Shown here: in pieces, positions 5,959 through 62,510 of the stretch
Layout of the letters: every line of letters begins with the position of its first letter
Numbering within the stretch: position 1 is the stretch's first letter
Source: Nemertoderma westbladi
Lineage: Eukaryota > Animalia > Xenacoelomorpha
Assembly (NCBI GenBank): GCA_032718475.1
Contig: JAUCBJ010000246.1
Span: forward strand, 1 to 64,000
DNA: 64,000 bases
Direction of reading: 5' to 3'
Notes under the pieces: model-generated
What the model saw: only the letters and a program-made list of their open reading frames with translations
The model's database searches: none
What the model was told of the DNA's origin: nothing
Program-made: the position numbers and the translations under genes

Positions 5959-5959
5959 G

Positions 5960-28590: not shown

Positions 28591-29164
28591 AACTAAAGTG
28601 CGCTACAATTCCGCTGGAACTCGATCTATTATCGGGTGTGGGGTGGGGTTATTTTCTTGGAGTCGGCTTTCCAGGCCGCTCCCTATGGGTATGATGTCAC
28701 TACCCTCTGGCGTCTCGTGTCGGGCCGATCGTGCGCTTCTCTCACACAATTTTTGTTTCCCCAACACTCTCGCCACTCTAACTTCGCTCTCTAACTCAAC
28801 TCGCTCTCTCCCCACTCTTACACTCTCCCCACACCTGAATCGCACTCTAACTTCTCGCCAACAGCTCTTCTCACTATCTCCTCTCTACTCTCTGCCACTC
28901 CCTAAGGCCCTAATCTCTAATGCTACCCCTGTGCTATCATACTATCTACCTTATCTAAGGTCTAACTTGCTAACTATCTAACTCTCTAACTCTACTAACT
29001 CTAACTCTACTACTCTACTCTACTCTCTGCTAACTCTTACTACTTCTAGCTCTAACTAAAAGCCTCTAACTTTCTACTAACTCTAACTAGAACTCTCTAA
29101 CTTTCTGCTAAGTCTACTAACTCTTTTCTAACTCTGACTAAAATCCTCCAACTAACTCTATCTC

Positions 29165-29790
29165 TATCTACGTGGCGCTAATGGTGCCCACAACCACAAC
29201 CGGTACTACGTACCCTCTTACTAACTCTACCTCCATCTACGTGGCGCTAACGGTGCCCACAACCACAACCGGTACTACGTACCCTCTTACTAACTCTACC
29301 TCCATCTACGTGGCGCTAACGGTGCCCACAACCACTCTGCTACTGCTTCTACTCTGCTACTATCTTTCTAACTCTACTAACTCTCTACTATCTCTAACTC
29401 TACTAGCTGGCACCCTATGTGCCCTCTCTACTACTCTACTCTCTGGCACCCTATGTGCCCTCTCTACTACTCTACTCTATCTACATCTCCACCTCAACTA
29501 ATACCTCTATCTACGTGGCGCTTCCGGTGCCCACAACCACTCTCTGCTACTACTTTCTACGTGGCGCTTCCGGTGCCCACAACCACTCTCTTACTACTTT
29601 CTACGTGGCGCTTCCGGTGCCCACAACCTCTCTCTTACTACTACTTTCTACGTGGCGCTTCCGGTGCCCACAACCCCTCTCTTACTACTTCTACGTGGCG
29701 CTTCCGGTGCCCACAACCACTCTCTACTACTACTTTCTACGTGGCGCTTCCGGTGCCCACAACCCCTCTCTTACTACTACTTTCTACTAA
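29165..29790. repeat. Tandem array in the 3' non-coding region (core ACGTGGCGC-N5-GTGCCCACAA; 59-bp and ~42-46-bp units)
   Basis: About 9 copies, directly visible. Confidence 0.92.
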
Positions 29791-30396
29791 CTATTATTTT
29801 TAATTATTTAATTATTTATTATTGTTTATTTAAATTAAATAATTATTTTTGTGGGAAGGGCGTCTCGCCCTCATTCCCACCCCCCTCAGTCCAAAATATT
29901 GGACGACTAAACCTCTTAACTAGGGCGATTCTTCCAACAGGCACTCTCCCACTGCTGCTCTTGTAGGTCCTGTAGGATTCGCCGCACTCTCTTCGCCAAT
30001 TCCATCTCACCAGGAATTGGTTCTCCCTCTTCTGCCACCCTGAAATCGGGTCTCTCCGCCGCCTTCTTAACTAGCTCGTCTCCTGGCATCAAAATGCCAC
30101 CTCCCTCCTTGTTGTCTCCCGCCGGCAGAATGAATAGAAAGTGAAAGAACAGGCAAAACAGGAGGTACAACACCAGTCCTACCCCTCTCCATCCTGCCTT
30201 CCTTCTCGACTTCCCCCTTGTCGGTATGCCTCTAAACCGGACCGGCATCTCTTCCGGACACTCCTCTAGACACTCCTCCAGACACTCCTCTGGAGTGTTG
30301 TCCTCCGGACACCTCGCCGTCCGCTCCGCTCCATCTCCATACCGATGCTTGCTGGGAAACCTACTCTCCTCTGCCCACTTTCTTACTGTCACCTCC

Positions 30397-33300: not shown

Positions 33301-35051
33301 TCCCTCTTGTCGGACACTCTCTACCCCCTTTCTCTCGCCACTAATCTTCTGTGGTGGGGCGCCCGTAGCCCCCCCCCACCCGCCACTTCTAACTTCACTA
33401 CCTCTTACTACACTTCTACACCCCTCTTGTGGGGCATTCTCTGCCCCCCCTCTCTCGCCGCTAATCTCATGTGGTGGGGCGCCCGTAGCCCCCCCCCCCC
33501 ACCCGCCACATCTAACTTCAATATCTCTTACTTCGTCTCTACACCCCTCTCTAGTCGACACACTGTCTCTACTACGGCTGGGTCTATTCACCCCCGCCTC
33601 TCTCCCTACTACTGCGAGGCCTACCAGGCCCACCCCGGGTTGGCTCAACCCCGCTACCTCCTGCCTACCAACTACGTGGCCTACCAGGCCGCCGTCGGGT
33701 TGGCTCAACCCCGCCACTTCCTGCCTACTAACTACGTGGCCTACCAGGCCGCCGTCTGCCGGGCTATACACGTCTGGCGCGTTCACATTAATAGCACCAT
33801 TCCCAATATTATTTGTTAATCAATTAAATTATTAGAATTTGAAACGGGATTATTATTTAAATTATTTAAGTTAGAATTATTATTATTTTCAAAATTTAAA
33901 TTGCTATTCGAATTATTTGAATTATTTTGATTATTCTGAATATTTGAATTAATATTATTATTTGAATTTAAACTTAAATTACTACTACCGGGTAAAATAT
34001 TTCCTGTAATAAAGGGATTAGGGTTATTTACTACGGTACTATTAATACCAATATTTCCTAACGCACTACTACTACCCCCCTCACCCGTACGGTTGCTGTA
34101 CGTACTGTACGTGTACCGCACGCTCTGTTCTCTTGCCTCACGCTCTTCGCGTTCACTCTCTTGCTCCTTCCTTCTCCCCATTATCCACTCTAATTCTTCC
34201 ATTTTTAATTTATATGCCATGCGTTCACTCTCTCGCACCCGTCTTTCTTTTGCGGAGGATGTAGCAGACTTATAGGTTGCGACGGACTCCCGCCGCCCCT
34301 CCGTCCTACTAACTTTCCCCCGCTCTCCGGGGTTCTCGCTGACCAACGAGACCGAATCCTCGGAGCTAACCTCGGATTCGCCCTCGTGCGGTCCCGCCCA
34401 ACCCACTAACTTAACTTCCCTGGCATCGACTAAGTATGGCCCTATGTACACTACACCAGGCCCCATACCCCTACGTTCCCATAGCCCAAACAGTTCGAAG
34501 GCAACCCCTCTCGCTCTCTCCTCGGCCAGTTCTCCCTGCCCAGAACGCACTAGGTAATCAAAGTATCTGTTCGACTCACCTAGTCGTCTCCTCAACTTCA
34601 CCTGGTCTATCTCAGCCCCTCCTCTAGCTTCCTTCAGTTGTTCCCGGGTCGCGGCGTAGGCTCGTCGAAGTCGATCAGAAACCCCGACATCCTCGTCGCC
34701 GACCTCTCCTCTCTCCCTCCGGGTTCGGCGTCGTACCGTCGGCTCCACCGTTGCCGTTCCGGTGGGCCGTTCGTCGCCCTCGGTCTGTGGCTGACCGGCG
34801 ACATCGGCATATCGACCGCCGCCCTGTGTCGACTCGTCTCTCTCCTCCCCCGTCTCGCTCTCTCCTCTACTCGACTCGCTCTCTCGCTGTAGACGACCCC
34901 CCACATCTTGGTTCGCCGGGTTGCTCGTTATCGACGTGGTCGACGTAGCATCGACCGGCGTCGTGGGTCCGTATCGTCTCGCCGTGGCCTCGCGGATCGT
35001 TAGATCGTCGTCCGGGGTCCGCGGCGGTGTCGCTTCTCCTCCTCTACTCAT
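30397..35051 (-). CDS. Bel/Pao Gag-protease polyprotein, broken into ORFs 33816-35051, 33172-33786, 32127-33278 and 30397-32256
   Basis: DUF1759-like capsid, CQLH..HKTRSC and CHRC..GH..C knuckles, protease LMLVDSGAAFTLV..IIVGMD..TPFGWTLSGP. Several breaks coincide with poly-C runs. Confidence 0.88.
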
Positions 35052-35113
35052 CTTCGTCTTCTGTGTTCTGTCTGTGTCTGGCAGTTACAGTTCGGCAGGC
35101 CTAGAGTTAAGAC

Positions 35114-35652
35114 TGTGACGGGATCCGAGAGGATCCCGGTTTATCCGGTGTTGTTTCGTACGCGTCCCCGCCGTGTGAATGAAAGAAAAGAGTTTGTCGT
35201 TCTTCCAGTGTTATTGATAATATGTATATGAGATAGACGGAGTAATGCAGTAATGATAGCACAGTATACCGGTAGTGATATGGTAGTATATATTGGTGAC
35301 GGCGGTGATGGTCTTAACTGTCACCGTTCTGCCTGACTGTACTGAGATGACTGAATGGGTATTGCATCGACCGGTAATATATATTGCACGGTGGCCTTAT
35401 AACTCTACCTAGCCGATGCCTTCCCCCCATTGGCTAATATCCCTGTTGGCACCCTTTGGAGTGTTTCCCTTCACTCCTTGTGTTCTCTCTCGGTTAGGGG
35501 TTTGGCCCCTGACCCTCCATTGTGTGTTTCTCCTTCCCTTCCCACTTTATTGGGGTGACACGAGGTTGATATTGGTAATCAACCTCGTGCTCCCAATATT
35601 GCTTAATGGCTCACTCTATGGGTTTGTGTTAGCGGAATTGGATAAGCTAACA
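35114..35652 (-). repeat. 5' LTR of the inner element
   Basis: TG..CA ends. On the minus strand: CCAAT, TATA-like (35376-35383) and TCAGT initiator (~35352) at canonical spacing. U5 terminal hairpin CGGGATCC-N4-GGATCCCG. Confidence 0.97.
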
Positions 35653-36433
35653 TCCCCGTCCTACTAACTTTCCCCCGCTTCCCGGAACTTCCTCCGACCG
35701 ACGAGGCCGAATCCTCGGGGTTAACCTCGGATTCGCCCCCTTCAGGTCTGTTCCAACCCACTAATTTTATACCCCGGGCATCGACCAAGTATGGCCCTAT
35801 GTACACTGACGCTACGCTAGGTTCCATACTCCCACATTCCCATAGTTCGAACAGTTCACTGGCAACCCCTTTCGCTCTCTCCTCGGCTAGTTCTCTCTGC
35901 CCGAAGCGCATCAGATAATATAAATGTCTGTCCGACTTACCTAGTCCTGACTTTAGTTTTACCTCGTCTATCGTCTTCCCCTTTCTGGCCTCGTCTAGTA
36001 GTCTCCGGGTCGCGTTGTAGGCCCGTCGAAGTCGCTCAGAAACCCCGACGTCCTCGTCGCCGACCTCTCGTCCGTCTCTCCGGGTTTGACGTCGTACCGG
36101 CGGACCCACCGTCGCCGTTTCGGTGGCCCGTTCGTCGCCCTCGGCCTGTGGCTGGCCGGCGACACCAGTGCGTCGACCCCCGTCCCGTGTCGACTCGTCT
36201 CCGTTCCAGGCCCCCCTCGTCCTGAACTGCCGGATGACCCGTTACCGATGGGTCCGGCGTTGTGGGCCTGTATCGCCTGGTTGTGGCCTCGCGGATCGTT
36301 AGCTCTTCGTCCGGGGTCCGCGTCGGTGTTATCTCTCCCGACTGACTCATCTCGGTTGGTGATCGGTGGAGTTCAGCTAGCTAGGGCAGCAGTTGTTGCA
36401 GTTTAACTAGGGCAGCAGCTCGGTTTTAGTTAC

Positions 36434-36972
36434 TGTGACGGGATCCAAGAGGGATCCCGGTTTATCCGTTGTTAGTTTACGCGTCCCCGCCGTGTATAAA
36501 GAGTGAATGAGTTTGTACTGTCCGTCGTATATAATATTTAGGTATACAGATATAGATATAGATGTGAGATAATATTGTTGTATATGGAAGGCGGGATACG
36601 GTAACTAAAGTCCCGGTCCTTCCCTAGCTAAACTATGTAACCTAAACTAGCACCAGTATTGCACTGAGATAACTGAATTGATATGATTACTGCCAAGTGG
36701 CTATATTGCACGGTTGGCCTTGTTACTCTACCTAATCGATGCCTTTCCCCCCTCTGATTGGTTGATACCCTTGTTGGCGCCCTTTGGAGTGTTCCCGTTC
36801 ACTCCACCTGTTCTCTCTGGGTTAGGGGTTTGGCCCCTGACCCTCATTGTGTGCTTCTCCTTCCCATTCTTATTGGGATGGCACGAGTTGGTTAATTACC
36901 CAATCTCGTGGCTCCCAATATTGCTTATCGGCTTAACTTTATGGGGTGTTAGCGGGATTGAATAAGCTAACA
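36434..36972 (-). repeat. 5' LTR of the outer element (diverged homologue of the inner LTR)
   Basis: Same termini (TGTGACGGGATCC...TAAGCTAACA) and same 539-bp length, diverged middle. Confidence 0.95.
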
Positions 36973-38040: not shown

Positions 38041-38570
38041 ATGTAGGCGTGGTAGGATAGACCGCACGAACTAGACTACTGTAGCGCATAGCCCGTAGTG
38101 CAGAGTTAGAACATTGCTACAGAGCCAGAAAGTTGTCTGGTAGGAAGCTAGTACAAGAGTAAGTTACAAAGTATTGTAGCTAGTCTTATCTGTAGACAAG
38201 TAGTGATGAATTACTTACATAGTAATTGAGTAGTAGATAATGTAATAGCATGTCAGTTGAGGTTGGGGAGTGAACACAGCACTGAAGAATCAGTTTACGC
38301 CCCATTTTTTATGATTTTGTCACGTTTGATGCTGACCGATTACTTCAATTTCTATAACAGGACGCAATTTTTTTGAGTCTATGGTTGTGTTGTCTGTATG
38401 AAACCGAAAAGGTCGAACCTTACCGTGCCACTTGGTACATAATTATTACATAGATTTAAATTTAAAACAAAAGATAAATGCTAATTAGGTACCTATAAAT
38501 ATTTATTTGCAGTAATGACACTCGTTGAAACCCTGTGGCCAATACAACACATGCTGCAATTCAATGTGTA

Positions 38571-39196
38571 GTGAAAGTAAAGTAAAAAGTTCGAATAAAT
38601 TTCACCTTTAACAAATTATGTTATTTAAATGAAAATAACCTGTTAAAAACCTAAAATCTTTTTGCTAATGATAGGAACCTAATTCGAGTCTAATAGGGTT
38701 AGTGAATTTTTTCATCTCATTTTTGAATAGGTTTAATTATTGTTTTAAACTATAAATTAAAAAACTTACTTTTTGTTGCTCTCCTGTGAAGAAGAGCGAT
38801 GTAGAAGAGCGAATTTCAGACCACCTTTACGAAAAGCAGGCAATGCATGAACAAGTTGCGATCGACCTAGACAACAGTAAAAAGTGAAAGTAAAGTAAAA
38901 AGTTCGAATAAATTTCACCTTTAACAAATTATGTTATTTAAATCAAAATAACCTGTTAAAAACCTAAAATCTTTTTGCTAATGATAGGAACCTAATTCGA
39001 GTCTAATAGGGTTAGTGAATTTTTTCATCTCATTTTTGAATAGGTTTAATTATTGTTTTAAACTATAAATTAAAAAACTTACTTTTTGTTGCTCTCCTGT
39101 GAAGAAGAGCGATGTAGAAGAGCGAATTTCAGACCACCTTTACGAAAAGCAGGCAATGCATGAACAAGTTGCGATCGACCTAGACAACAGTAAAAA
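38571..39196. repeat. 313-bp direct tandem duplication
   Basis: 38571-38883 is almost identical to 38884-39196 and includes the start of the transposase fragment. Confidence 0.93.
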
Positions 39197-40124
39197 ACTA
39201 GCCTCTGGTATAGAGTTAATGACGTTTGACCTGCAGAAAGTCTTGTCTACTCCAATGGGTGACAATATGTTGCTTGGCTATTCGCGCAAATTGGCAGTCT
39301 ACAATCTGACATCATTTCTAAGTTCTAATAAAGCTGGGTACTGCTATATTTGGAATGAAACGATAGCTAAGCGTGGATCAATCGAAATAGCGTCTTTTAT
39401 ATACGACCAACTCCTTCGACTTGATGATATGGGAGTTCAGAATATCATTGCTCATTGTGATTCATGTGGTGGCCAGATCCGGAATCGTATGGTAATCGCG
39501 GCTGTGCTAACCTTCATGTACATAGCCAAACAAGTGACTAGTACCATCATCAAGTTTTTAATCCCTCGCCATACCTATCTTCAAGCAGATAGTATCCATG
39601 CCACTATAGAAAGGGCTTATAGTAAGCAGATTGTCTATGCTCCATCTGAATGGCCTGGTATTGTGGTGCGTGCTAGGCAATGCCCATGTCCCTATGAGGT
39701 GGTTAAAGTCACTAAAGACCACGTTCTGGATTGGAAGAAAAGTAGTCTCCTCTACCCTCTTCTACATTGCGACACGGGCAAACCGAAACCTAAGAAGATT
39801 CCGTGGGCAAATATTCGCGCACTTAAGTATGAGAAGGGTATAGATGGACACATAGCTGTGTCATTCACTACGACATTTTGCAACAATGCGACATGGAAAA
39901 CTATGAAATCAAGAAAGAATGAGAGGGCTAATCCACCTATTCCACCGAAAGCATATTCAAAGCAATTGCCCATATCTGCTGTGAAGAAGAAAGATCTCAT
40001 GGATCTTTGCAGTAATGGGTTTATACCGCAAATCTTCCATAACGAATATGAAGCCATAACAACCAGCATGGATGTTCCTGATGAACTGGATGAGACGGAT
40101 GTGGAGGATGTGACTGACGATTGA
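39099..40124 (+). pseudogene. Sola1-like DDD transposase, C-terminal part (5'-truncated)
   Basis: FDLQKVLSTP..YSRKLAVYNLT..WNETIAKRGSIEIAS..CDSCGGQ.RN..HTYLQADSIHATIE..PISAVKKKDL..C. Probable right end near 40757, with repeated AAGGGCATT motifs. Confidence 0.82.
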
Positions 40125-44505: not shown

Positions 44506-45141
44506 TCAGCCTCCACCCCCTCCGCCGATGAGTATTTAGTACTGTTGCTACGTTTGTATAATATTGTAGCTATTGTAGTATATGTTTTGTAGTACATATA
44601 CATTGAATATATGTGGTGGTTTAATTACAATTAATAATTGTATAATATATTTATTTTGAGTACCTTGCGCTCCTACTGCCCCCCTTCCAACACTGTGATT
44701 AACTTTATAGCAATATGTTAATTAAGCAATGTCAAACAATAAAATAAATTACAATAGTGTCATTGACAGTGGCACTTTATCATCTATTGTTTTGAGGTTA
44801 TTGAAATGTTAAGTTATTAATTAAAGTTTAAGTTACCAATCGTAACCAGGTTGTAGGAAACTCTAATCTGTTAACTTTTAACAGAAGTAGCGAATATAAT
44901 TACAATTTATTCAAATCCGATTTATTATTTTTAGTGCTACAAGTATTAATACTTGTATGAGAAAACATTACGTATAATTAATTTATTTATTTTTAATCAG
45001 TTAAATTATAATAAAATTGTTATTAAAAATGTACTATATATTATAAAATATATTGCAAAATAAACACCGGTTTACAAATATTACATAAAGATCAGTTTAC
45101 ACTTTTTGTGATTATATAATTTATTTTGTTATAGGAATAAT

Positions 45142-46386
45142 TGTAAAAGCTTTTGTGGGATAACTGATACGTTTGCCTTTGCTGGCCAGTTCCCCCCAGG
45201 CGCTGGAATACTCTAAAAAGGTTTTCTAACTGTATATAGATTCCCCTCGCCCGCAAGGTACCTTTACAGGTGTTTTAACGGACATAAAAATCATTCTGCT
45301 ATATACGTGTTTTGGCGGACATGGTAAGGCAAAAAACCTGTAATGCACCAACTACCTTTCACAGCTTAGCCGTGATAATTCATATTACGACATCTAACAG
45401 CTGGTTGCTGACATGGAAACAGCCATTGGATGTATGGTTCTTTGTTTGGCTTGAGCCAATCAGAGCGATTTTTCCTGTCGACGTGTAGCTTTTAGTCGAT
45501 CATAAGGAGAGTGTTCAGTCTTAAAGTTTCTTACTTGATACTTTGTTGTTATTGCTGTCTAAGCCAGAAACACCGGCCTTTCGGTAAGAACTCTAGTAAA
45601 CTGCTTGAATTATCGAGAGTATAAACTGTTACCTTAACGAATCGAACCTTAACGCATCTTAACATACTTACTTAATTTAATTGCATTAATCATATTGTTT
45701 GTACTGTTATTTTACCGTCAGTTATTAATTGTACCTATTTGTTGATGGAAATATTGCTCTTTGGATAATACGGATAAATCACCCAAATTCCCAATTTTCT
45801 TGATACACTACAGGTTAGAGAGACCGGTTATACATAACAATTGCGATTTATATTAATGTGGTGTGTATTGAATCCAATGTTATTTAGCAGACCCTACGTG
45901 AGTCAATTACTGCTCTCTTTATGTGTGATCAAATATACTGACTGTCGGCAGAATAGTGTGTATGATCGTGATTGGTAACAAAGTATTTCCTAAAGAATAC
46001 GCTTTATACTTTAATCATAAGCAGTATCGTTGCGTTTTAGTATAAGTCTTAGTTCTGTTTAAATAGATAAAGTGCCACGTCCTAAAGGAACTGTTAATAT
46101 TTCCCGAAAGCCAATAATATCTGTCAGAGATTAATTTATTAACGATCTATCGAATGGTATAGTAGGTATACACTGCAACCTTACACTGCAATAATAAAAT
46201 TCAAGCATCCGAATTCAGCCTCCCGGGTGTAGATCCATCGGGTGAATGATCGCGCATGGGCTGCCTTCGGCTAATGTTTTGCGTATTAGCATAAAATATT
46301 GTCGTATGCTAAAGTGGTTTTAATTAACTAAAAGACATATAAATTTTGGCAGGTTAAACTGCTAAAGGTCTTCAAAAGCGCGAACA
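45142..46386 (+). repeat. 5' LTR
   Basis: Matches 62511-63755, two substitutions noticed. CCAAT box near 45456 and TCAGT initiator-like motif at 45515-45519. Confidence 0.97.
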
Positions 46387-46399
46387 GTAACAGTTTATA
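46387..46399 (+). other. Non-tRNA PBS-position sequence complementary to own LTR 45620-45632
   Basis: GTAACAGTTTATA vs TATAAACTGTTAC, 13/13 complementary. No TGG after the LTR. Confidence 0.8.
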
Positions 46400-46683
46400 A
46401 TCTTATTGCAGTAAGCAATAAGGTTGCAAAATACCGTAGTGACCGGTAAACCTGAACCGGTACTTCTGTAAGTCAGTAGGCCTAACTGTCATCACCGGTA
46501 CCGGTACTGCTGTACAAGTACATTAGTATTATTCGATTTTGATTGTTGTATACCGGTAGGTCTTGGTACTTAATCAGGGAACGGCCGCCCTGATTTTTTA
46601 TTTGAGATTCTACTTATTTCTGTCGGTTTTATTTACTAGTAGGCTAATATTGAGCAGAAGGCGTGTGACCCTGCTCAGATTGT

Positions 46684-47257
46684 TCAGATAATTGTAGGCT
46701 GAGCTGCTGTCTGACTGTTGTTGAGTTTGGAGAGATTGCGGTGTGTGTAGAGTTTGTCTGATAAAGTGCCGTTAGTAAGTTGGGGCAGCCATAAGCGGTA
46801 AGGTCAATCCCCTCTTAAAGAATAAGTCGTACTACCGTGTTAGAACGCATACTAACTAACAGTTTCAGAGTCTGCATATACCGTAGTTTATTTAGGCTTG
46901 ATCGTAGTCTGCCAGTGTTTCAGCCTGTGTTTGTTTGTGTGGTCTGTTCAGGTACCGTAATAGTTATTATTCAAATATTTGTAGGCTGGATTGTTGTCTG
47001 GCTATTTTTGGGTCTGAAGGGATTGCTGCGTGTGTAGAGTTGGTCTGATCAAGTGCCGTTAGTAAGTTGGGGCAGCCATAAGCGGTAAGGTCAATCCCCT
47101 CTTAAAGAGTAAGTCGTACTACCGTGTTAGAACGCATACTAACTAACAGTTTCAGAATCTGCACATACAGTAGTTTGTTTAGGCTTAATAGTAGTCTGCC
47201 AGCGTTTGGTTTGTATTTGTTTGAGTATTCTGTACGGGTAGCGTAATATTTATTATT
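46684..47257 (+). repeat. 287-bp direct repeat in the 5' leader with a near-identical ~90-bp core
   Basis: 46771-46860 vs 47058-47147 differ at about one position, while the flanks are more diverged. Confidence 0.9.
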
Positions 47258-48567
47258 CAGAGTTTATGCGATTATTCGCAACATTCATGTCCCCAAGTTT
47301 ATTCCTACAGTAATTGTGCTTGTTATACATACCGTTATAGTTAAACTAACCCCGGTACTACATCAGGGCTGCTTGGCGTAGGTAAAGACTGACGACTTTG
47401 TGCTTCGGTCACTCCAGCAGATGCCGTGGTTCTTTTAACTGTTCAAGTATATTTAACTACTGATTATTTGTTATACCGGTACTTGTACCTAATTTAGGGT
47501 TTAGTGTACAGTGCTTTCCGAAGTAATTAGTGTAGGCAGTATATTTGTATTGTAAAGTGGTTGATAGGCACATTCGTTAGCTCTATTAGCTTCTGGGTAG
47601 GAACAATCCGTGATACATAACGTAGTACCTATAGCGATACGGTTATAGGTCGTCAGGCGGTGGTATTTTCCTATCTGGACAACGCAGTATATTTACTACT
47701 ACTTATTATTTAAATACCGTAGTACCCTGTCCTTTGTAATAACCAGAAATCTAACCCTTTGTTGGACTGGTTTGTAGACTTCCTGTAAAATTACCCTAAA
47801 AATTTCGTACGTAATATTTTGTTGTGTTTAATTAGAGAATTAATCTCACCCGTATCGTAAGTAATTTGTAGTATTAAGTAACTTAGGTAAATTAGAATTA
47901 TCAGTTTTAGTGTCAAATAAATAGCACTTCACTTAGAGGCGTTCAGCTTCTGTGTAGTGACTCCCCCAGAAATAATAACATTTATTTCAAATATTGACAA
48001 AACCCATTTAAACGGGTATATAAATATTATAAATCAACTCAAACGATTTATAAATAGTAGGCCTGCCATACAACAACTAGGTCTTACTATCAGTTGGACT
48101 ACTGCTTAAATAACGGTAATAAAGTAAGTTAAAGTAACTAAGTAACCCTAAAATATTCAGGAATTCAATTATTATAAAAATAATTGACATACCGGTACTT
48201 ACCATAGGCTTATTATATTTATTTCTATAAATTTGAGCTGAAATCATACCGGTACTCTGTAATTAATTCTAGTTCATAATTATACTTACATGCTGTAAGT
48301 GTAAGCTGTATACCGGTATTCATTATAGGCCTACTATATATATATATATATTTGTGCTAAAATTATATACCGGTACTCTGTGACACATCTAGTCTGTAAT
48401 AATACTTATATATTATAAGCATACCGGTATTCTAATATATTGTGTATATATCACGTTACACCGAGTAACGGTACCGGTAATAAATCGCTAGGCTTGCGGT
48501 CATACTGAATTACTAGACTTGCTTTAACTGAAAATATAGTAGTAGACATTCAACTGTATAACTAAAC

Positions 48568-51500
48568 ATGTCTGACACTCAGCAAAACCTGTCGGACAGT
48601 CTGATCGATACAACTATCTGTGATTCAGATAGGAGTGTGGAGCGAATAAGAAAGGAGTTCGGCTCACCTCCTACTGTAAAAAAGGTCATCCCTCCAGTAG
48701 TATCAGACCCTAGGCTAGTCCACCATAGGTCCATCATAGGCACTAGGGCACAGGTAAAACGGGACCAAGAGGCAGTTGTCTTATCGCAGCAACATCTTGG
48801 TCAAGAACCTACTTCCCAGCGACCCGATAGCTCCAGCAGTTCGGATACTGTAGAGCTGACTCCCGAACATGGAGTGCAGATGTCTGATACAGTCTACTCG
48901 GACCCCCTTCTTACTCTTCCTGCTGCAGTGCTAACTACTATATTCATTGCGGTGGAGGAACATCAAGCCGACTGGGCGAAGAATAAGCGAGCGACCCAAG
49001 ATAATTACGCGGGATACGCCAGGGAAGAATTGATATCTATTGTTGAATCACAATGGAACTTTCCCGGACTCGGACTTCCGTTGGATATGTCCGAGGCTAC
49101 TTGGGAAGAGCTACACAGGATGGGAGTGGCTAAAGATACAATGGATCCAGCTGTTTGGAAGAGGTCGGCAGCAGGATATGTGCAGGGATTCTTCGGATCC
49201 TTAGAGCGATTGGAAGAACAACTGTTTCGACAACCTCACGGACCTCAAGAGCAGGAAGAGCTGCTATACCAAGTACGCGAAAGAACCCTACGCATTCGAC
49301 TAATCCTCTCAGCCTTTGAGGAAACTTCCAAAAGAAGACAGGACACTTCGCTGCAGGTTGCTGTCAAAACTTGGCTACATCGGGTAGATCTCAAAGTACA
49401 GGAAACAGCCCCGTGGAAATCCCAGCTGGCTGAGAGATCAACCTATGAAGAACCAACTGATGTCACCGAACCAACTGATGTCACCCGTGCTCAAGAGGAA
49501 AGCGAAGAGGCCGCCGAGAAACCGCGAACTAGAGACGCTATCGACATTTATTTGTCCGACTATCAGCGATTCCTAGGAGACGAAGAGTTGAGGAGACGGC
49601 TGTCTGGACTTTCCCCTAATAGTGAAGGAACCAAGCTTGTGTTGGACTCAATCGATGCCGAAATGTTAGCTGCAAACCAAGCTGAATGTGATGAAAAACT
49701 CCGCCTCACTAGAGTCCGAGAAGAACAAATAAAGAAAAGAAGGATAGAGGAACAAAAAACGGCGGCTATGGCGGCGGCTATAGCAGATGCAGAAGCAGAA
49801 AGTAAAGCAGCAAAGGCGGTGGCAAAGGCAGATGCAGAAGCAGAAAGGAAGGCAGCGGCTGCAGATGCAGAAGCAGAAAGAAAGGCAGCGGCTGCAGATG
49901 CAGAAGCGGAAGAAAAAGCAGCAAAGGCGGTGGCAAAGGCAGAAGCAGAAGCAGAAATGAGAGCATTTGAGCAGACTGCTCAACTGGAGTTGGAGAATCT
50001 GCAAGAGACACAAGACAGTATAACTAAACAGTTTACTGCTAATCAAATGCAGATGATGAGAAAATCTACTCCCAAGCGCCAGGGGTACACATCCTCGGAG
50101 GAAGGCGATACTACCGACCCTGAAGGCGGAGGAAATAGATCCCATCTAAGTAGACGTAGAAAAACATATTACCGTCGCAAATTGCCTGATTTGCCCCCAG
50201 CTGTTAAAAGACAGCTAACTAGCACAGATTTAGGTAGTGCAGAACCCATGGAACAATTTATCCAGGTCAAAAGACTCCCTACTATAGTCGATGAACCTGA
50301 AATAATTAGGCCTGTAGTTCCCAAAGTCACTTCTGTGCTAGAGACCCCTACACTTCCAGAGCTTAACTCTAAATTCCCTTTACATAGCACTACACTGCCT
50401 GTACCCGGTGGAACAGTCCATGCAAATACCCCTGTCCAGATAGCAGAGAGAGAAATCAATAATTTGTCTCCCGTCGTCCCGCGTCAGCCCGCTACTATGT
50501 TGGCGACTCCCGCTTCGGCGGTTGAGTGGGTGGAAGAGGGACGGCGGGGGATGAATCTTCTGCTAGGACAGATGCAGGAGACTGTCCACCAACTTAAGGG
50601 AACAGTGAGGGAAGGTAGAGCAGAGTTGCAAGAAGTGCAGCAAAGTATCGCGCTAGAACGCGACAAATTAGTCAATATACAAAAAGGCATACCAATGCCT
50701 CCTGTAACATTGTGTCAACCCGTTAGGTCTGAAGTATTACATGCGCAAGGTGTGGAGCCTACACGCATCTATACTGCTAGTGAAGTTGAAACTCCTATAG
50801 CAAACCCTATTAAGGGTGATTATAGACCTGTTATTAATGATATTCCCTATAAACCTGATAATGATCCGAGAAATTTATATACCGATAATTCGATATTAAA
50901 TAACACGATGGCCCAAGAAAGCTTTACGCGTCAGATGGCTAGAACAGAAGCCCGCCAAGCGGTCAAAGTGGGAGAGATCGTCAAATTCAATGGAGATGAG
51001 ATGAAATGGTTACCTTTCAACGAATATTACAAAGATAGCATACAGAACTCTGTACTATCTAACGGAGAGAAACTTAGATTCCTCATCAAGTGCTTGGAAG
51101 GACCTCCCAAGTTAATGGCGTTAAAGTTTATTGGACATCCAGAAGGATTAAGACAAGTTTGGGATACATTAAACATCAGGTATGGTAACAAAGATAACAT
51201 AGCTAAGTATTTGTATACAAAGTTAGTAGCCCCCCGACACTTCCTTAGTAGTGGGATTATAGAGTTTTCCGATGAAATACAAGAGATCTGTAGACAACTG
51301 GACTGGTTAGGTAAGTCGCACGAATACCAGAGTTCCATGGTTATTGGAGCCGTAGTCTCTACTTTACCAAAGGGTGGAGTATGTACACGCTGGGACAAGA
51401 AAGTGTTGTACATGAATGAACAACAACGACGAAGTCCTACCATGGCTGATCTCATGTCTTTCTTAGATGGTTAAGTCAAATTACAACTCATCAAGCAGTC

Positions 51501-54500
51501 CAGAGAGAAAACATCGGAAAATAAGGTAAGTGAGAAACCTACTTCTAGGAGAAGAGTAACACCGGTGTGTTACACTGACGACGGCGAAAGCCAAGCTTCC
51601 CAAGAAGAGGACAGCGGGAAAGATACAGACAGATCGTATTATGTTGACAAAACCTCCAAGGACGTAAGTAAATACAAAGCTCGAACCAATAATAGGAGAG
51701 AACAAGTTACTAAGACCCCTCCTCAGTCTCCTAACAGAATGCGCGGAAGAAAGCCCGAAGAAAGAACGAGAGTGCATCAGACTACCCAGGGTAAAGTAAG
51801 TAACATAAAACCTAACTGTGCGCTGTGTGACGGGACCCACCGTTTGAGTGCGTGTGCGGAATTTCTAAAGAAATCCCTTGTAGACAGACGTACAGTTGTG
51901 TGGGACAAGCGGTTATGTTATAATTGCCTCAGACCAGGACACCAACGGCGAACCTGTTACTCCGACATAAAGTGTGAAAAGTGTGGTGCGAAACATCACA
52001 TCTTGTTACATAGTGAGTTCGAACGAGACAAGCCGAGTCAGGTAAGTGAGTCCGAACTACATGTCCAATTCAGTGATGTAAACGACACTGATCAGGAGTC
52101 TGAGATGGAGGGATTTTATACTGACGAATTCTCCGACGTCAATGAATCCTGTTATCTAATAAACACCACGGTGTATCGAGCACTTACTTACGAAAAGGAT
52201 ATCAGCGAGGAGTTTCCCCCTACTACTTTTACCAAACAATCATCTTGGAAAGCTCCTACTTCCAATGTAGGAATCAGAGAATTTCCTGTAGTTCAGGTAA
52301 GAGTTCATGGTATTAACAAAAGCTACATAGTGAACGCCCTACTTGACTCAGGCAGCACAGGAACATTCATAGATCAAGAGCTAGCCGAAGATATCTTTGC
52401 TGGACAACCCAAGTTCCGGACTAAATTGAATATGTCAGGAATTATGCAGGTTTGGAAATCTACCCTGACGGCAGATTACTATGTAGGTGAGTTGTCCACC
52501 CCCCAGGATAAGTTAGGAACACAAGGTGTAAGGTCAGTAAAAATGGTGGCTATAAAGAACTTTGCTACTACTCAAGCAGACCTTTATAATTGGGACGAAG
52601 ATGAGAGCGTCCAACATCTTAAGATACCTCGATTCCAGACAGATTATCCTGGAGTGCAAATACTTATCGGCCAAAACGCGCACGAGGCGCTCGAAACATT
52701 AGAGAAACGGCCTGCTCAACCACAGCCACTGCAAACTTATGCGGTAAGAACTAGAGTAGGTTGGTACTTTACTGGCCCTTCCCGTAGAACTTTAGAAGAA
52801 AGAATGCCACACGAACAAATAGATCAGGTAAGTGATTGGGAAGAGGAAAACAGCGAAGTGGACGAACCAACTGAGGGAACCCCATACTCCTCAGATAATG
52901 ACGACATCTACCAACTCTTCGAAGAAGAGAAGACAATTGACCTACTTACCGAAAACCAAACTTGGAAAAACCAAACGAACCTATGTCAATTGATTCGCCC
53001 AACGGAACCCACTATTTATAATGACGAACTTAATGACGAGGTAGAGCGCTACAACGCTAGAACTCGGGACGAACTCGCCGTACGATTCTTTACCCAAGAA
53101 TTGGTAGAACCCAATTCATACGACAAAGCCCTGTCGATAGAAGAAGAAAGAGCCAAGCAAATCCAGGAAACAACCACACGTTTTTTAAAAGATCAAGGTA
53201 GATATGAAATCGGACTACCCTTCCGAAAACGTGAACCCAGATTTATAAATAACAGACCCTTGGCTGAGAAAAGAATCAATCAATTACATCGACGTCTGAC
53301 GGCAAACGCTTCAGCTAAGGAAATGTACCAGACTCAGTTGAAGAAATTTATCACAAAGGGATATGCGGAGCGAGTACCGGAAGGAACTCCCATAACTGAA
53401 AGGACTTATTATCTAACACATCATTATGTTCCCAAACCCGGTAAACCCCATGAAGTACGGGTTGTATTTGATGGCTCCGCCCTATATATGGGCCAATCCC
53501 TTAATTCCGAGTTGTTACCAGGACCCAACTTGCTCCAATCTTTGTTGGGGATACTGTTGAGATTAAGACAATATTCCATCGCGTTCGCCTCCGATATAGA
53601 AGGAATGTTCCTACAAGTCAAGGCGTTGGATCGTGATAGAGACAGCCTAAGATTCCTGTGGTGGCCTGAAGGAGATCTCAACCAGACAATTTAAAGTCCC
53701 TTCCATCAGTAAAGGAAGCCATTGATGTCGCGAAAGGGATGGTTGAGTGTTTGAAAAGAGGTGGATTTCGGTTGACGAAGTTCACCAGCAACTCCCGTGA
53801 GTTTCTGGAAGCAATATCTGTAGAAGACCGGGGGTCAAAAGATCTCGACTTAATACATGATGATCTTCCGGAAACCAAGACACTTGGCTTGAAGTGGGAC
53901 ACAGAAAGAGACATCCTGTTTTTTCAGTTAAAACAGCGAGATAATCCAGTTCGGACCAAACGGATTTGTTTAAGTATTCTGAGCACTTATTTCGATCCCT
54001 TGGGATTTATTAGCCCAGTTATATTGATTGCTCGGAGTTTAGTACAACAAATGTGGCTGGAAAACCACTCGTGGGACGATCCACTCAAGGGAGAACTATT
54101 AAAGAAATGGATGAAATGGGAGGATTCGCTACCTGCCATCGAGAACTTTATAATTTCCTGTTCATATTTTGGTCATGTTCTCCCTACGTATTCCTATCAA
54201 CTCCATGTATTTGGAGATGCCAGCGATATGGGGATCGGTATCGTAGCATATCTGCGAGTCGAAACTCCGGATGGAATCAAAGTTGCCTTGGTTACCTCTA
54301 AGGCATTGATTAACAACAAGCTTAAGGTTCCTCGAGCGGAGTTAAAAGCAGCATTATACGCTACCGCTATCGGACGGAATGTAACAGAACAGATCGATTA
54401 TCCACTGGAGAAAACCGTTTATTGGACCGACGCTTTACTTGTATTGGAATATATAACGAATGAAGTCTGTCAGTTCAGCGTCTTTGTTACTAACAGAGTG

Positions 54501-56561
54501 GCCATTATTCTTAGTCGCACAACGATAGATCAATGGAGACATTGCCCTGGTACGATTAACCCAGCTGACATCGCCTCCAGAGGAGCAACTCCACAGGAAC
54601 TGATAGATACCCCTGACTGGTTGGGTGGACCCGACTTCTTGAGCAAGGAAGAGGATGAATGGCCTCCTCACCTTACTACGGCTGAGATTAGACAAGCCAA
54701 GGGAGCGGAGAAAGTCAAACCCAAAATTCGGACAAGTAAATCGAAGTTATTTAAACCTACAATCGACCTATCTGTACTACATACTGCCGAGAACGATACT
54801 TCGGATCCACAATCCCTCACCACAAACAAATCTGTTGTGGAAATTAGAGATAGAAATTGGAAATCTGAGATACCAGACGTCTCGCAAGGAATCTCACCCC
54901 TGCTGCAGAGAGCACTGCATCATTACAGTTCCTGGAATCGTCTCTGTAAAGCTATCACATACTTAAAGAGATGTTTTCACCATCATTACTCCAGGAAGAA
55001 AACCACTAGTGATCCTGCTCCGGTAACATCTGCGCAAGTTCATGTTATTAAAGATCTACCTAAGTACAAGATATCAGACCGGTTTCTAAAGGAGAAGATC
55101 AGCTACCAGGAGCATGAAGAAACTAATAAGCAGATACTGAGACTATTGCAATGCTATGAGGATTCCGATAGGTATTTTCTGCTATTAAGAAATCCGCAGA
55201 TGCGCTTAAGGGATCGCTTCTCTAGCACAATGATAGATGGGTTAATACGCGTTGGAGGAAGACTTACCAACGCTCCATTATCTTTTGATACTAAATTCCC
55301 TATACTCATTAGTAATCTTGAAGTACAAATCAAGATGATTGTAGATGTTCACAGTAAACTGTATCATGCTGGTAGAGAACGAGTTCTTAGCGAGATTCGA
55401 ACCCGCTATTATTTTCATAAACCACGTAGAGCTCTGAATCAAGTTCTTAGGAACTGCATACCTTGTAGGAAAGTATTCAGTAGGCCTTTAACACAGCGAG
55501 AGGCAGAATTACCTAGGGAACGAGTAAGCTTTTATGAACCACCCTTTACTAATACTGGTGTGGATTTATTTGGCCCTATTGAAGTATATCGTGCTAGAAC
55601 TATAATCAAGAGATGGTGTGTAATCTTTGTCTGCATGACTTGTAGAGCTATCCATCTCGATATGGTGAACGATCTATCTACTAACAGCTTCGTCTTATGT
55701 CTACGACGACAGATCGCTCGTTTCGGCACTAGCAATACGATGAGATCCGATAAGGGAACGAACTTCATTGGTGCCAACAACGAAATCCAGGCTTACGTAA
55801 AGGACTGGAATCAAAGACAGGTGGATGACCAGCTACGGATAACGGCGTCTAGCTGGACCTTTAACGCCGCCGACGCCCCTTGGTGGGGAGGAAGTTGGGA
55901 GAGATTGATTCGAAGTGTCAAGACCGCATTTCACTTTATAGTGCCGTGCCGCGCATATCTCACCGACGAACTTCTACGGACGTTAATGGAAGAAATCGCT
56001 GCCTATCTTAACGAGAGACCGCTTATGCCAGTCTCATCGAGTGTCGACTCCCTGGAAGCGCTAACACCCTCGCATTTCCTACTTAAGAAACCTGTAGCCA
56101 TGCTCCCAAAATCCGAGATTGCCGACGGAGATGAATACTGTCGTCGAACTTGGCAGCTTATGCAGTTGCTATCCCGTCGTTTCGCTGACCATTTTGAGAA
56201 ACATTATCTGCCCACGCTACAACTTCGAACTAAGTGGTTTGCGCAGCAGGAAAATGTCAGCGCCGGAGACATGGTCCTTATTGTAGATCCGGACCTCCCA
56301 CGTAGACGGTGGCAGATCGGTCGTATCATCGAGACGCACATCTCGGAGGATGGTCTAGTGCGCTCAGTAGAACTCGTCGTAATGCGGCGTAACTTCAAGA
56401 AACCCGGAATAATCTTTGAGACGCAACAACTCAATCGCCCAGTTGGTCGTTTATGTTTGCTGGAAAGAGACAGAGAACTCTCCGGAAACTATGGAAGACA
56501 AGACACTCTTCCCACGACCACCTCCCTAATACCTCAAACATCTAGGGACTCCCAAACGTGA
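48568..56561 (+). pseudogene. Bel/Pao gag-pol polyprotein with an in-frame stop (51472-51474) and a deleted RT catalytic core (~53690)
   Basis: KFNGD..F..LRFLIKCLEG..YG capsid. Three knuckles CALC..H..C, CYNC..GH..C, CEKC..HH..LH. LLDSGS protease. YYLTHH..VRVVFDGS..SLNSELLPGP..DIEGMF..LRFLW. No YVDD. KTLGLKW, FDPLG, HVFGDAS, PRAEL, WTDA, NPADIASRG. Integrase GVDLFGP, SDKGTNF, GGSWERL. Confidence 0.95.
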
Positions 56562-57106
56562 TACGTCTGGAGTGGGTGTATGACTATATTATTTTATCTA
56601 TTTTATTACATTTTATATGCGAACTTTATTATGTACTTTATTATAATCGTTTTTATTTAATTTTAATTAGTAAAATGTTATTTTAGAATGTTAGTAGATT
56701 AGTGCAATATATTAATGTTTATTACGTACATAATTACTTATAATATATATTTAGTGCGACGGCAAGAAGTAATTATTTTCTCTTTCCTTACTGTCCGTAT
56801 TATATTATAAATGCGAGACTATAGTAAGATGACATGTCAGTACTTCTTAAAGTACAATAAAAGCCACTACTATATTTAAGTATTATTGGTAGGCAGAGTA
56901 TTAGGAATGCAAAGTTCAGATCCTCGTGTCTCGGCTAAACCAAGCTCTGGGTAGACCTTGGAAACGACTTGCCTCTTCACACTGACATTGCTTCGTGCGA
57001 TATTGCTCTTCTACCTTATAACAAATAATACATATAGTAGCGTGATGTCCCTCTAACAGTAGCGTCAATCGCAAATAAATCTGTTAAACTTTTGACCATC
57101 TGTAAT

Positions 57107-57370
57107 TCTAGTCGATTAAGATATCGTGGCACCCACCGATATACTTGAAAGACAAATTCTAGAATCAGTGGTTAACGTCCCCAGACAAGTTCTGGAATAA
57201 ATTGGTGCCCATCCTAAATATTAATTTAATATTTGTTAAAATCTGTAAAATCCCGATCCTTTAAAATTTCTAGTCAATTAAGATATCGCAGTATTTACCG
57301 ATATTCTTAGAAGGACTACTTTACAGAATTAAGGATCCTGAGTCCCCAGATATGCTCTGGAATAAAATTT
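57107..57370 (+). repeat. Diverged ~100-bp direct repeat with hairpins in the pol-ORF3 spacer
   Basis: TCTAGTC.ATTAAGATATCG...CGATAT...CCCCAGA-N5-TCTGGAATAAA occurs at ~57107 and ~57269. Confidence 0.7.
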
Positions 57371-58178
57371 ATGTCAATTTAATATCAAATAATAAAATTC
57401 ACGGGAATAAATTTAAATTCATATTCAAATGAATTTCATAAATTGTCATTTTGTGCAATTTACAACATTCCCAAAATTCCAGTAATTAATAGATCATGGG
57501 AGCGGAGATTCATATTGAGTGTACTAGAGTGTGAGAATCTCCAACATATAGTCAATAGCCAATAAAATTTATAAAATCATGCATAAAGAAGATATTGACA
57601 ATTAAAGAATTACTATTAAATAACATCCCAGATCTGTATACATGAGAATTGCCCTAATTCTACCGCTAGTTTTCCATAATGTCACCATGGCAACACCCAC
57701 GCTAGAATTAGAAGCAAATTAAAGGAACAATAAAAGCTTGCCCCATTGCGTAGCATAAGAGTATACATAGCGCTATTAGTATCCAAGGATACATAGTAAT
57801 AACGTGACATTCTGGAAGACACTGACTAACGGACAAATGGCATGCGTGTGTGCAGTAAGTAATGATTGTATGGAATTTGTGCGTTTGTAGGTGAATGTTA
57901 CTACTAAAGTGTGTTTACCGTAGCTAATCGCAATTGTAAAATAGCCCTAACTCTACCGAGATAACCTCAAGTGGATTCAAGCCTTTGGGACGGACAGTGG
58001 TGGGACTTGTGCCGGTTATCGTTGTCGTGCTGTTGCTACATGTTGGCGTAAACACTGCGACAGCGGTACATCGGCGCTGAGAAACCCACTGTCCAGGGGC
58101 AAAAAGCCTAATAGGCAGCGACGCCCGCTTGCCTAAAATATTAATTTATATTGATATTAACAAACTCAGATAGCAGAT

Positions 58179-61100
58179 ATGATGGAATTGATAGAAGATG
58201 ACCTTGGTATTAGAGAGCGATATACTCTACCTTTACAAGCGTTTGTGGATAGCTTGATACGCGGTGAAGCCGATCCGACTATTACGGAGGACGATGGTCG
58301 TTATATCGAACCGCCGATGTCCCAGGAACAACTTACGCGTGAAGTGGACTATAGAAAATTCACCGCTCGCTATACGAATCGCAATGGTACGTATATGGAC
58401 TTCTTAACTACCGGCCATCCCACCGATTTACATGATACCGATGATGTAGACACCGAAAGGGAAATGGTTTTATTTAAATATCATACCCAGCGGAATCGTA
58501 ATGACAAACCGAGAATAGAACACGAGAACTCTATTCGCAACCTACTCGACAGAGAAAACGTTGAAGAACCCGATAAGCGTATCAACTTCAACGACTACGT
58601 GGAATTTTTGCGGGAAACCTATCTCAATATTGCCAGTCAACAGAACCTAGAGACTCGATATCCTCAAGGTATACATCACGATCCCATGGTAGAACTCAAA
58701 CGACTCTATTTCACCATGATGTATCTTACTGCAGATCGTCCACTGCCTGTTGTCCCGGACAGTTTTGAACAAATGGAAGAGTATTGCAAAACTGGTGAAC
58801 GATCACCCGCGTTTCCTCTGCAGGACGTACGTCTTTGGTATTATTGTGACTCATGTCCTAGACCTAACCAGCAAACGGAAAGACATAAACATCCGCGGAG
58901 ACGTTGTGCTAAACACAGTTTTACGCGTTATACTTACGGGAGTTTCGAGCGAAACCTGTTCGACGTATCACCTACGATCGCCCGTCTAAAACGATCGCTA
59001 AATAAACCCATGATCAGAGTTCCGGAATACTCGGTCAGACCTCCCCATTTCCCCGTGAGACCTCAAACTCTTGATCCTAACAGTCTCACTGATCCTCCCG
59101 AGTTATACTCACTGTTCAAGGATTTGGTGTTGCCCGAGCAGTTAATCGGTGGTGTTCCTGAGGTAGGTTCGTTGGATATTCGACCATCCTATTTGACCGG
59201 ATTGGGACGCGGACATCTAACATCGCCATTTAATCCTTACAACCGGCCAGGATTAACTCCGATACAACCTGCCACGGAAGTCGAGGAGAGTGTCATCAGA
59301 AACGCTCTAGACGCCATCCGACAGAAAATCGGAAAGGGAACCCAGGATTTTCTAGAGAAACGTAAATTACAGCAGCAGGTCCAATCGGTGAAAGAGCTAG
59401 CCTTGCCGCAGTTTGATAGAGAAATCCAAAACCTCGAAGAGGACATCGAGCTTGGACGTACGTATTCTCTACAGGAGTTTCTGGAAGAACGCTTACAGAA
59501 ACAGGCGGAGGAGAATCAAATGGAGGAGAGACATACGGAAATGGATGAGAGAGAAGAAGCCGCTTTAGCCCAACCCGAAACTCAGATACTCATAACAGAT
59601 CTCTACTCTAAAACCGTCCGTCATCCCTCGATGGTTCCGCATTTCGGAGACAAACTTTTCGCAAAGATACAACCCCAACCGGTTGATATCAGCATAAGAT
59701 CGCAAAATCTTATCGCTGACGCTCCTATGTTACAGCATCCGCCAATCGAGGCCGCTCGAGTTGACGGTATACTCGTTGAACCTCCGGACAATCGAGCGGA
59801 TCTTGTCCGTCGTATGGTACATGATGTCAACATACGCGCTAGACCTTTACAGAACTCTTTTTATGGAATTAAAGATCACCCTTATTACGTTAATCTGACT
59901 CAATATTATATGGTAAAACCAGAAGATCCGACGCATGATTTAAAGTTTCTACCGCTAATAAATCCTCTAGACATTGTCGAACTCGAACAATTGCAAAAAC
60001 ATCTGGATCAATTAGTAAAGGCAAACTCATTTCGAAAACCATACAATGTTTCTCGAATAGAGAAGGATACAGAACCTCCTTATAACCTCGATGGATTTAT
60101 TAAAACTCGATTAGTCCATTGGAATCTAGACGTATTATTTGAGGAGGAGAAAATCCAAAGATATGGAAATGTGGAGACGTATACCACTCGATATATGAAG
60201 TATAGTGATCTCCCTGACGCTAATCAATGCGCCACCTTGTGGCATCCGGTAGGGATGACCCTCGAGAACGCCACCAAAGAGTGGAATGAAACTCTTAATA
60301 TCATTGAGATGTATGGAGTTGTTACTTATGATAACGAAGGTAGCGTTCCAATCGGAGAATTAGGAACTACGCGCATGATACACATACGTGGATTAGCTGG
60401 CTCCACTCACGTGTTTACGCGAGCGTGTTCCGACGTGATCGATTATTCCTTCGAAACTCTCACCGAAACGCAAAAGAATCTCCGACATGGACAATTCGAA
60501 CTCGCGCAGCGTTACGTCATTGACACCGAACGCAAACCGGCCATGGGTATCGATGGATCGATGTTACCCCAGCCCGTTCTCGAGATGTTATTCAACGAAA
60601 GAATCGTTAAAATCGGCTCAGCTGTTTACGGAGATCTCCAAAACGACTTTCGGAATATGGAGAATATCCCCTATCCTTTCGTGGATACTCAGCTGATAGC
60701 TCCTTGGGCCGAAGGCCGAGGTTTCTTTCGCACCATGTATGCTAATGTGTCTAGCAACATTACAAAGGTGCAACGAACTTCCATCGGACATCTTGCCTTT
60801 CAGGAATACGGGTGGAATTTCAAGGTCGGAAATCCCATCAACTATCAACAAGTATACGGAGACCATTATTCTCGATTATACTTTGACGGACCGTTGACCG
60901 CACCTGGCGCCGTGTATAGCTTCATGAGTGTTCCACTCCGTCCCTCCTTAGCTATCTACACGATCTTCGAAAACACCGCACTTTCCGGTTGGCTATCCGA
61001 TGTGTGCAGTCGTACTATACGCGCCCATCCATTAATCCTTGGGACCAAACTCGCTAAGCTAGATGAACATAATAAATTCATCCGCTTTGAATGTTTCCGA

Positions 61101-62432: not shown

Positions 62433-62502
62433 CTGTTTAGAGTATTTTTATATTTTAGAAACTGTGATTTTGTATATTTTATAGACTTAAATCCCATTTT
62501 CT

Positions 62503-62510
62503 GGGAGCGG
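62503..62510 (+). other. Polypurine tract
   Basis: GGGAGCGG directly before the TGT of the 3' LTR, overlapping a small TCCCA-N5-TGGGA hairpin. Confidence 0.85.

Follow-up and report, generated by a model that had tools for sequence, protein, structure and literature searches.

The window analysed here, a stretch of 64,000 nucleotides from Nemertoderma westbladi (contig JAUCBJ010000246.1), contains an 18.6-kb LTR retrotransposon on the forward strand (45142-63755). Its LTRs are 1245 bp long (5' LTR 45142-46386, 3' LTR 62511-63755), run from TG to CA and differ at 2 of 1245 positions. A 5-bp target site duplication (ATAAT, left copy 45137-45141, right copy 63756-63760) flanks the element, which is young. 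A polypurine tract (62503-62510) abuts the start of the 3' LTR. The gag frame (48562-51474, ATG at 48568) encodes DUF1759 and ends in an in-frame stop (51472-51474). A second frame (51475-53694) encodes zinc knuckles, the protease and the first part of the reverse transcriptase (RT), and a third (53670-56561) the rest of the RT, the RNase H (Peptidase_A17), the integrase and DUF5641. The stop after gag and the frame change inside the RT, near 53670-53694, mean that this copy may be non-autonomous. The frames match the Pfam families DUF1759, Peptidase_A17, Integrase_H2C2 and DUF5641, the RT motifs align, and 60 of 60 homologues, from animals or unnamed sources, carry Bel/Pao Pfam families. The gag/PR-RT-RH-IN order, the TG...CA LTRs, the polypurine tract and the target site duplication identify the element as a member of Bel/Pao (Belpaoviridae). 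Its RT forms a long branch apart from three insect proteins in a quick tree, and many variants of the family occur in public contigs of one organism (organism A). The leader is very long (2.2 kb, 46387-48568) and holds a 287-bp tandem duplication (46679-47259). A 1.6-kb spacer (56561-58161) separates pol from a further frame, ORF3 (58161-62432, 1423 aa). No good splice acceptor was found upstream of the gag start codon (46387-48568) or the ORF3 start codon (56561-58161).

Several other mobile elements lie in the window. A 22-nt repeat forms two arrays in inverted orientation (3431-3967 and 7612-7970), between which lie frames encoding an HTH and an rva_4 integrase core (PF24764, E 4.6e-74), and the interval 3431-7970 is likely a DNA transposon with terminal inverted repeats built from these repeats. 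A 351-aa frame at 39069-40124 has no Pfam match and carries motifs resembling those of a Sola-type DDE transposase. A 313-bp tandem duplication (38570-39196) adjoins this frame. A further Bel/Pao pol, which is broken, is represented at 1-1875 by its 3' part with integrase and DUF5641; its identity to the 18.6-kb element is about 30%.

The primer binding site (PBS) of the 18.6-kb element (46387-46399, forward strand) lies immediately 3' of the CA of the 5' LTR. There is no TGG start of the tRNA type after the 5' LTR, no tRNA gene was found in the window, and an Rfam search of the window gave no meaningful match. The PBS is instead the perfect 13-bp complement of an LTR segment at 45620-45632, which ends in AC followed by C, and of its second copy in the 3' LTR at 62989-63001. 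All coordinates in the initial annotation, which had proposed this pairing, proved exact. So did its extension of the pairing by four base pairs past one mismatch: an A.G mismatch (46400/45619) is followed by three Watson-Crick pairs and one G-U pair. A match of 13 bp recurs in 1 of 20,000 dinucleotide shuffles of the LTR, and among 16,123 internal positions the only one to reach 13 is the PBS itself. Markov estimates run from 7e-5 to 2.7e-4, higher than the figure of 2e-5 in the initial annotation.

The same arrangement is seen in two related Bel/Pao-like elements on the minus strand, one nested in the other (24300-36972), with 539-bp LTRs. The inner element has its 5' LTR at 35114-35652, the PBS at 35105-35113 and the putative primer at 35311-35319, with the 3' LTR at 28012-28550. 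The outer element has its 5' LTR at 36434-36972, the PBS at 36425-36433 and the putative primer at 36601-36609. Each shows a 9-bp self-match (45 and 38 of 20,000 shuffles), and both matches have the GT start and AC|C end that had been described as common to all three elements. Six of the 9 core positions are different between the two PBSs, each of which pairs with its own LTR; the region of the primer sites has diverged, and the sites are offset by 30 nt and cannot be aligned. Gag and protease were found for these elements, with no RT match in the window. The LTRs of the inner element differ at 1 of 539 positions and its target site duplication is GGGGA, both of which point to a recent move. 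The inner element probably moved in trans and retained its self-primer. An unrelated gag-bearing element serves, as proposed, as an internal control. Its PBS (13547-13565, forward strand), presumably of the tRNA-Gln type, starts with TGG, and the best upstream self-match is 6 nt. A second LTR of this element was not found in the window.

We searched for relatives with an RT alignment. Eighty of 417 confirmed metagenome-contig loci and 2 genome-contig loci gave a set of 82 loci in 43 clusters. After 17 clusters without usable LTR or leader were dropped (5 of them by eye), 26 families were counted. A family-specific self-complement occurs in 22 of these 26, split by a GT-AG intron in the LTR in 20 families, where only splicing would join its parts, and contiguous in 2. 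Independent cases are fewer than 22, since some clusters are close sisters. In nine clusters the 5' LTR end was set by comparing the 5' and 3' LTRs, and none of the nine starts with TGG. All nine carry a self-complement of 11-15 nt (null 0-3 of 2000 each), in eight across a GTAAG...YAG intron whose removal takes out 76-360 nt, and in one as a contiguous match (L082, 11 nt). In 13 more clusters the LTR end was taken from the CA before the match. Twelve of these are split, with 10-16 nt (L063, L026, L032, L033, L034, L041, L043, L047, L051, L065, L066 and L076; the weakest case is L041, with a null of 36 of 1000), and the thirteenth, L078, has a contiguous match. Contiguous self-matches in relatives are mostly short but lie directly 3' of a pyrimidine tract and AG. 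Four of the 26 families fail the test: L014 has one internal mismatch, L021 and L019 have one mismatch and no visible donor, and the LTR end of L027 is unclear. Because LTR ends taken from the match are partly circular, we also ran a free scan in which any CA was allowed as the end. The families' own LTRs reached at least 10 nt across the junction in 16 of 18 cases, against 2 of 290 pairs with foreign LTRs.

Together with the three elements of the window, 25 cores comprise 21 distinct 9-mers, which start with GT (22 cores) or AT (3 cores) and have a fixed AY end. The base after the primer is mostly C, and the helix ends at a distance of 0-5 nt from the LTR end. All three window elements and 9 of 21 families (p<=0.05) show further pairing on the 5' side of the core, which a primer consisting of a longer 5' fragment would predict. 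The initial annotation had suggested an element-encoded internal primer common to a broad Bel/Pao clade; the 22 of 26 readable families, all drawn from contigs of the search set and mostly metagenomic, support both parts of this suggestion. They also bear on the view that the pairing is a product of chance or of a local inverted duplication without function. Such a view might appeal to the AT-rich DNA, in which single 10-mers are expected (mean 0.78). For the 13-mer it is refuted by the cross-family test, as a match found in 1 of 20,000 shuffles is repeated in two more window elements and in 22 related families with different sequences. The 13-mer pairing is real, and we give the chance explanation almost no credence.

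In a quick RT tree the split families sit in a 46-row group with the 18.6-kb element outside it (support 83-88), and as far as these sequences go shared ancestry of the trait between the element and the split families is plausible. The split L051 and the contiguous L082 are neighbors in the tree (support 84) and their primer flanks are identical at 47 of 75 positions (12 of 1000 shuffles), which may be a modest hint of intron loss or gain. In L051, the exon-2 part of the predicted primer (83-88) consists of an AATAAA hexamer. L082 is a complete element with identical 320-bp LTRs. Both L081 and L082 are Bel/Pao elements in bacterial MAG contigs, almost certainly as eukaryotic contamination. The 20-mers spanning 16 spliced junctions are all absent from the 82 loci, which are mostly DNA-like, and a search of viral contigs gave 34 pattern matches and no relative. 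A PBS abutting the LTR tends to accompany a polypurine tract abutting the other LTR (L063, L047, L076), and a PBS spacer of 2-4 nt goes with 2-3 extra bases after the polypurine tract (L005, L007, L024, L056; L034 is an exception). This match in spacing may reflect symmetric end processing.

The region 45517-46450 was also considered as a folded RNA. Perfect inverted matches of at least 10 bp number five there, while 1000 nulls had 0.78 on average and never more than 4. One of the five is the primer helix, two are the halves of a single U5-leader helix, and the remaining two are at chance level, since at least two such matches arise in 180 of 1000 nulls. The U5-leader helix pairs an LTR arm (46174-46194) with 46403-46428. 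At -31.7 kcal/mol it is matched by 0 of 100 shuffles, and it is real in the 18.6-kb element. The three further 10-mers listed in the initial annotation are all present, and the competition of the last two with a local hairpin at 46402-46422, within the leader segment 46402-46428, is upheld. The pairing of 45602 with 46198 is one of the two chance-level matches and has a probability of about 7e-5 in the pseudoknot-free ensemble, so that we treat it as chance, which remains its likely explanation. The primer helix reaches a mean probability of 0.56 in that ensemble and the U5-leader helix 0.38. Folding the region, as had been proposed, yields the primer helix, spanning 754 nt, in both the MFE and the centroid structure, yet shuffled sequences fold equally well (z -0.23). 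Because the three long-range helices cross, no single nested structure can hold them all, and the idea of one folded R-U5-PBS domain with every listed helix is not supported. A duplex between the post-primer segment and U5 is absent from the 18.6-kb element (99 of 200 shuffles are as good). A general pretzel in the relatives is unsupported as well, with side duplexes significant in 1 of 20 families and, for the U5-leader helix, in 2 of 21.

The U5-leader arm overlaps the start of the only AATAAA of the LTR (46193-46198, in which 46197 is C in about half of the depth of run X1), so masking of poly(A) signals is a second possible use of this helix. This overlap and the competing local hairpin might suggest that the pairing is a conserved RNA switch for packaging, dimerisation, poly(A) masking or translation control, while a host RNA such as a tRNA half does the priming. 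The TTCGAA palindrome in the PBS of several relatives, which is reminiscent of a tRNA T-loop, could be read in the same way. So could the tRNA priming that ICTV gives for the family (PMC8742986). A switch would however leave 21 different 9-nt cores, each matching its own LTR, in need of as many host primers, and the helix always ends 0-5 nt from the LTR end, with its fixed AY end, where synthesis must begin. We consider the switch improbable.

An initiator-like TCAGT (45515-45519) upstream of the primer core is a candidate start site, with +1 at 45517, and a similar motif lies upstream of the primer in both nested elements. A second TCAGT (45718-45722), downstream of the primer, overlaps a candidate splice acceptor; the two motifs thus flank the core. 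If the second motif were used, the primer would fall outside the 5' RNA, which would count against our preferred model. Among copies, substitutions at a threshold of at least 1% over 45500-45790 gave 24 rows, of which 2 lie before 45594, 16 in 45638-45665 and 6 after 45733, with none in 45594-45637 or 45666-45733. The core itself has no substitution at this threshold. A hypervariable G-poor stretch (45638-45680) starts 6 nt past the primer end, and the constraint reaches 5 nt beyond the predicted cut. It covers most of 45533-45637 and is hence not specific to the primer. Depth in run X1, which is not equal to copy number, falls from about 340,000 to about 1,900 immediately behind the primer, a drop of about 180-fold. 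For indels over 45500-45790 the best 12 of 16 rows were considered. A contig of a divergent subfamily (run X5, 45670 region) keeps the primer core with one A fewer. Around the PBS, the 40 of 261 rows listed include no variant in 46297-46470, which is a weak observation. The only run guessed to be RNA (X4) has no cover at 45600-45679 and proves nothing.

A PBS complement across a canonical LTR intron, as in most relatives, is not found in the 18.6-kb element, in which the core is contiguous. Joining 45432 to 45619 by splicing would lengthen the pairing to 16 bp; this was rejected, with a donor score of 1.9, an acceptor score of -4.5 and the donor GT read as GC in about 96% of the depth. A possible, uncertain GT-AG intron (45584-45721) contains the primer, and its use would remove the primer from the spliced RNA, again contrary to our preferred model. 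Splicing could then act as an off switch, in which either unspliced RNA self-primes or the excised and trimmed intron primes in trans. Such a switch would fit a GTAAG donor situated 67 nt downstream of the candidate start, the absence of AG over 87 nt behind the primer and an acceptor region that does not vary. The scores of donor (5.1) and acceptor (4.5) nevertheless fall at the low end of 16 relatives' introns while other LTR sites score higher, and the nested elements share the AG-free, G-poor stretch after the primer without an intron. No start site, RNA cut or splice joint at the LTR was seen in the run contigs searched. An off switch of this kind is very unlikely.

ORF3 raises a further possibility. 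Among 1.84 billion representatives it has one homologue, P0063 (E 2.9e-6), for which no further relatives were found. P0063 matches PF01612 weakly (E 0.2) and has zinc knuckles; the Atlas clusters closest to it are RNase D-like exonucleases with DNA_pol_A_exo1 and zf-CCHC domains, which at a score of 0.86 is no more than a lead. In an alignment made by eye, acidic motifs coincide at ORF3 aa 724/726, 825 and 933-937. ORF3 has no direct match in Pfam or PDB, and a PDB sequence search with P0063 returned knuckle matches only. A single-sequence structure model of the ORF3 region reached a pLDDT of 30. By way of this one homologue, ORF3 appears to resemble a DEDDy/RNase D-like exonuclease (about aa 720-940) with CCHC-like knuckles. 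DEDDy ORF3s have been described for bdelloid LTR elements in the available part of PMC5408684. Such an enzyme could trim the 3' end of the RNA. The 3' LTR copy of the primer would then be cut or trimmed to 63001, possibly by ORF3, and anneal to the PBS, with strand transfer via a second RNA copy. The complement at 62989-63001 does lie upstream of the 3' AATAAA, most families have a PAS-like hexamer after the primer, and the downstream initiator-like motif at 45718 fits. However, this route requires the removal of about 580 nt together with the poly(A) tail, and R for the transfer would be lost. TATA-like and initiator-like motifs 24-99 nt upstream of the primers of both nested elements argue for a start before the primer. 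No ORF3 relative is encoded in the 82 related loci, many of them truncated, which implies that the primer system does not need ORF3. Priming from the 3' copy is unlikely in our view, if less so than an RNA switch.

We suggest, with a reasonable degree of confidence, that the 18.6-kb element uses the 5' end of its own RNA as primer for reverse transcription, independently of tRNA and in the manner of Tf1. That it self-primes in some form is highly probable. The pairing of PBS and LTR is family-specific across 25 elements, and the core of the 18.6-kb element is conserved among copies. Transcription would start upstream of the core, probably near 45517, and a capped 5' fragment of about 116 nt would fold onto the PBS and the leader behind it. 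By analogy with Tf1, the element's RNase H would cut after the terminal AC, and the 3'-OH so produced would face the first base of the PBS. Minus-strand strong-stop DNA would then extend over U5 and R as far as the cut; the 3' LTR would be the template for rebuilding all sequence upstream of that point, primer included.

The split families can be accommodated by the same scheme. The intron is visible as sequence; the primer would result when the 5' copy is spliced, and the unspliced 3' copy would transmit the intron. If only the 5' copy is spliced, an LTR intron could survive since the upstream sequence is copied from the 3' LTR, and intron-free forms could originate likewise. We lean, by a narrow measure, towards a broad animal Bel/Pao group that has dropped tRNA priming, in which the spliceosome builds the primer from an LTR intron, the 5' copy is spliced and cut, and the unspliced 3' copy hands on the intron. 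The 18.6-kb element, the nested pair, L082 and L078 would represent the intron-free form, which arises when the 3' copy is spliced too. Judged by its contiguous core, the 18.6-kb element carries the predicted ready-made form of the primer.

The start of reverse transcription in Bel/Pao has so far been assumed rather than studied, with ICTV naming a host tRNA. If true, self-priming reaches a third LTR superfamily, with a long internal primer rather than the first 11 nt. A primer made at a splice junction would tie replication to splicing and explain why an intron is kept through reverse transcription. Such elements would also be blind to defences based on tRNA fragments, and annotation tools that seek tRNA sites would miss or misplace them.

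Primers encoded by the element itself have been claimed within Bel/Pao before. Cer7-type elements of C. elegans are said to encode their own primer RNA, a tRNA-like internal RNA; we found no supporting paper for this. The likeness to the 18.6-kb element lies in the element-encoded primer, but in the Cer7 type it is tRNA-like and not an LTR segment, and the window holds no tRNA gene. In the full-text literature, with Repbase Reports and subscription journals outside its scope, we found no paper on Bel/Pao self-priming or an intron-split primer. The words PBS, tRNA and priming are absent from the main text of the Sinbad paper (PMC554778) and the BEL/Pao survey (PMC3118150). The ICTV profile of Belpaoviridae gives an 18-nt PBS for tRNA-Arg/Gly, a genome of 4.2-10 kb and an env-like third gene, and describes replication as poorly understood (PMC8742986). 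The 18.6-kb element has gag-PR-RT-RH-IN, DUF1759, Peptidase_A17, DUF5641, TG...CA LTRs, the polypurine tract and the 5-bp target site duplication in common with this family. It departs from the profile in its larger size (18.6 kb), the lack of a TGG site and an exonuclease-like ORF3. On the evidence of sequence, non-tRNA priming appears to be a widespread design in Bel/Pao, to which the 18.6-kb element belongs. The bdelloid elements Juno and Vesta also carry an RNase D-like exonuclease ORF downstream of pol, likened here to ORF3 by description. They are not Bel/Pao, and the available part of their description (PMC5408684) proposes no role in primer formation.

Self-priming has been described for Tf1/sushi and Tcn1 and predicted for the TAR and Houba Copia elements (PMC6317226, PMC3601003, as far as their accessible text goes). 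The Ty1/Copia elements TAR, Houba and Osr-1 of plants likewise show an LTR-PBS complementarity of at least 10 bp located 0-5 bp after the LTR. They have the Copia domain order, and the accessible text mentions no intron-split primer (PMC6317226). Tf1 and Tf2 of Schizosaccharomyces pombe, Tf1/sushi and Tcn1 (Ty3/Gypsy), in the sources at hand, are like the 18.6-kb element in lacking a tRNA site, and an 11-nt LTR segment pairs with the PBS where the present element has 13 bp. In Tf1 the PBS is paired with the first 11 nt, and the RNase H cut falls at the end of this duplex, between nt 11 and 12, whereas the core of the 18.6-kb element is internal, at a predicted distance of about 104-116 nt from the cap (PMC7175516, available part). 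Side duplexes give the Tf1 RNA the form of a pretzel, and the U5-leader helix of the 18.6-kb element has the topology of one of the two (PMC10085805, available part). What sets these elements apart from Tf1 is the frequent extension of pairing 5' of the core, the limited occurrence of side duplexes and, in most relatives, a core split by an intron. Tf1/sushi elements belong to another superfamily, whereas the 18.6-kb element has Bel/Pao domains and no chromodomain match. The 18.6-kb element is thus probably Tf1-like in its working and not a member of Tf1/sushi.
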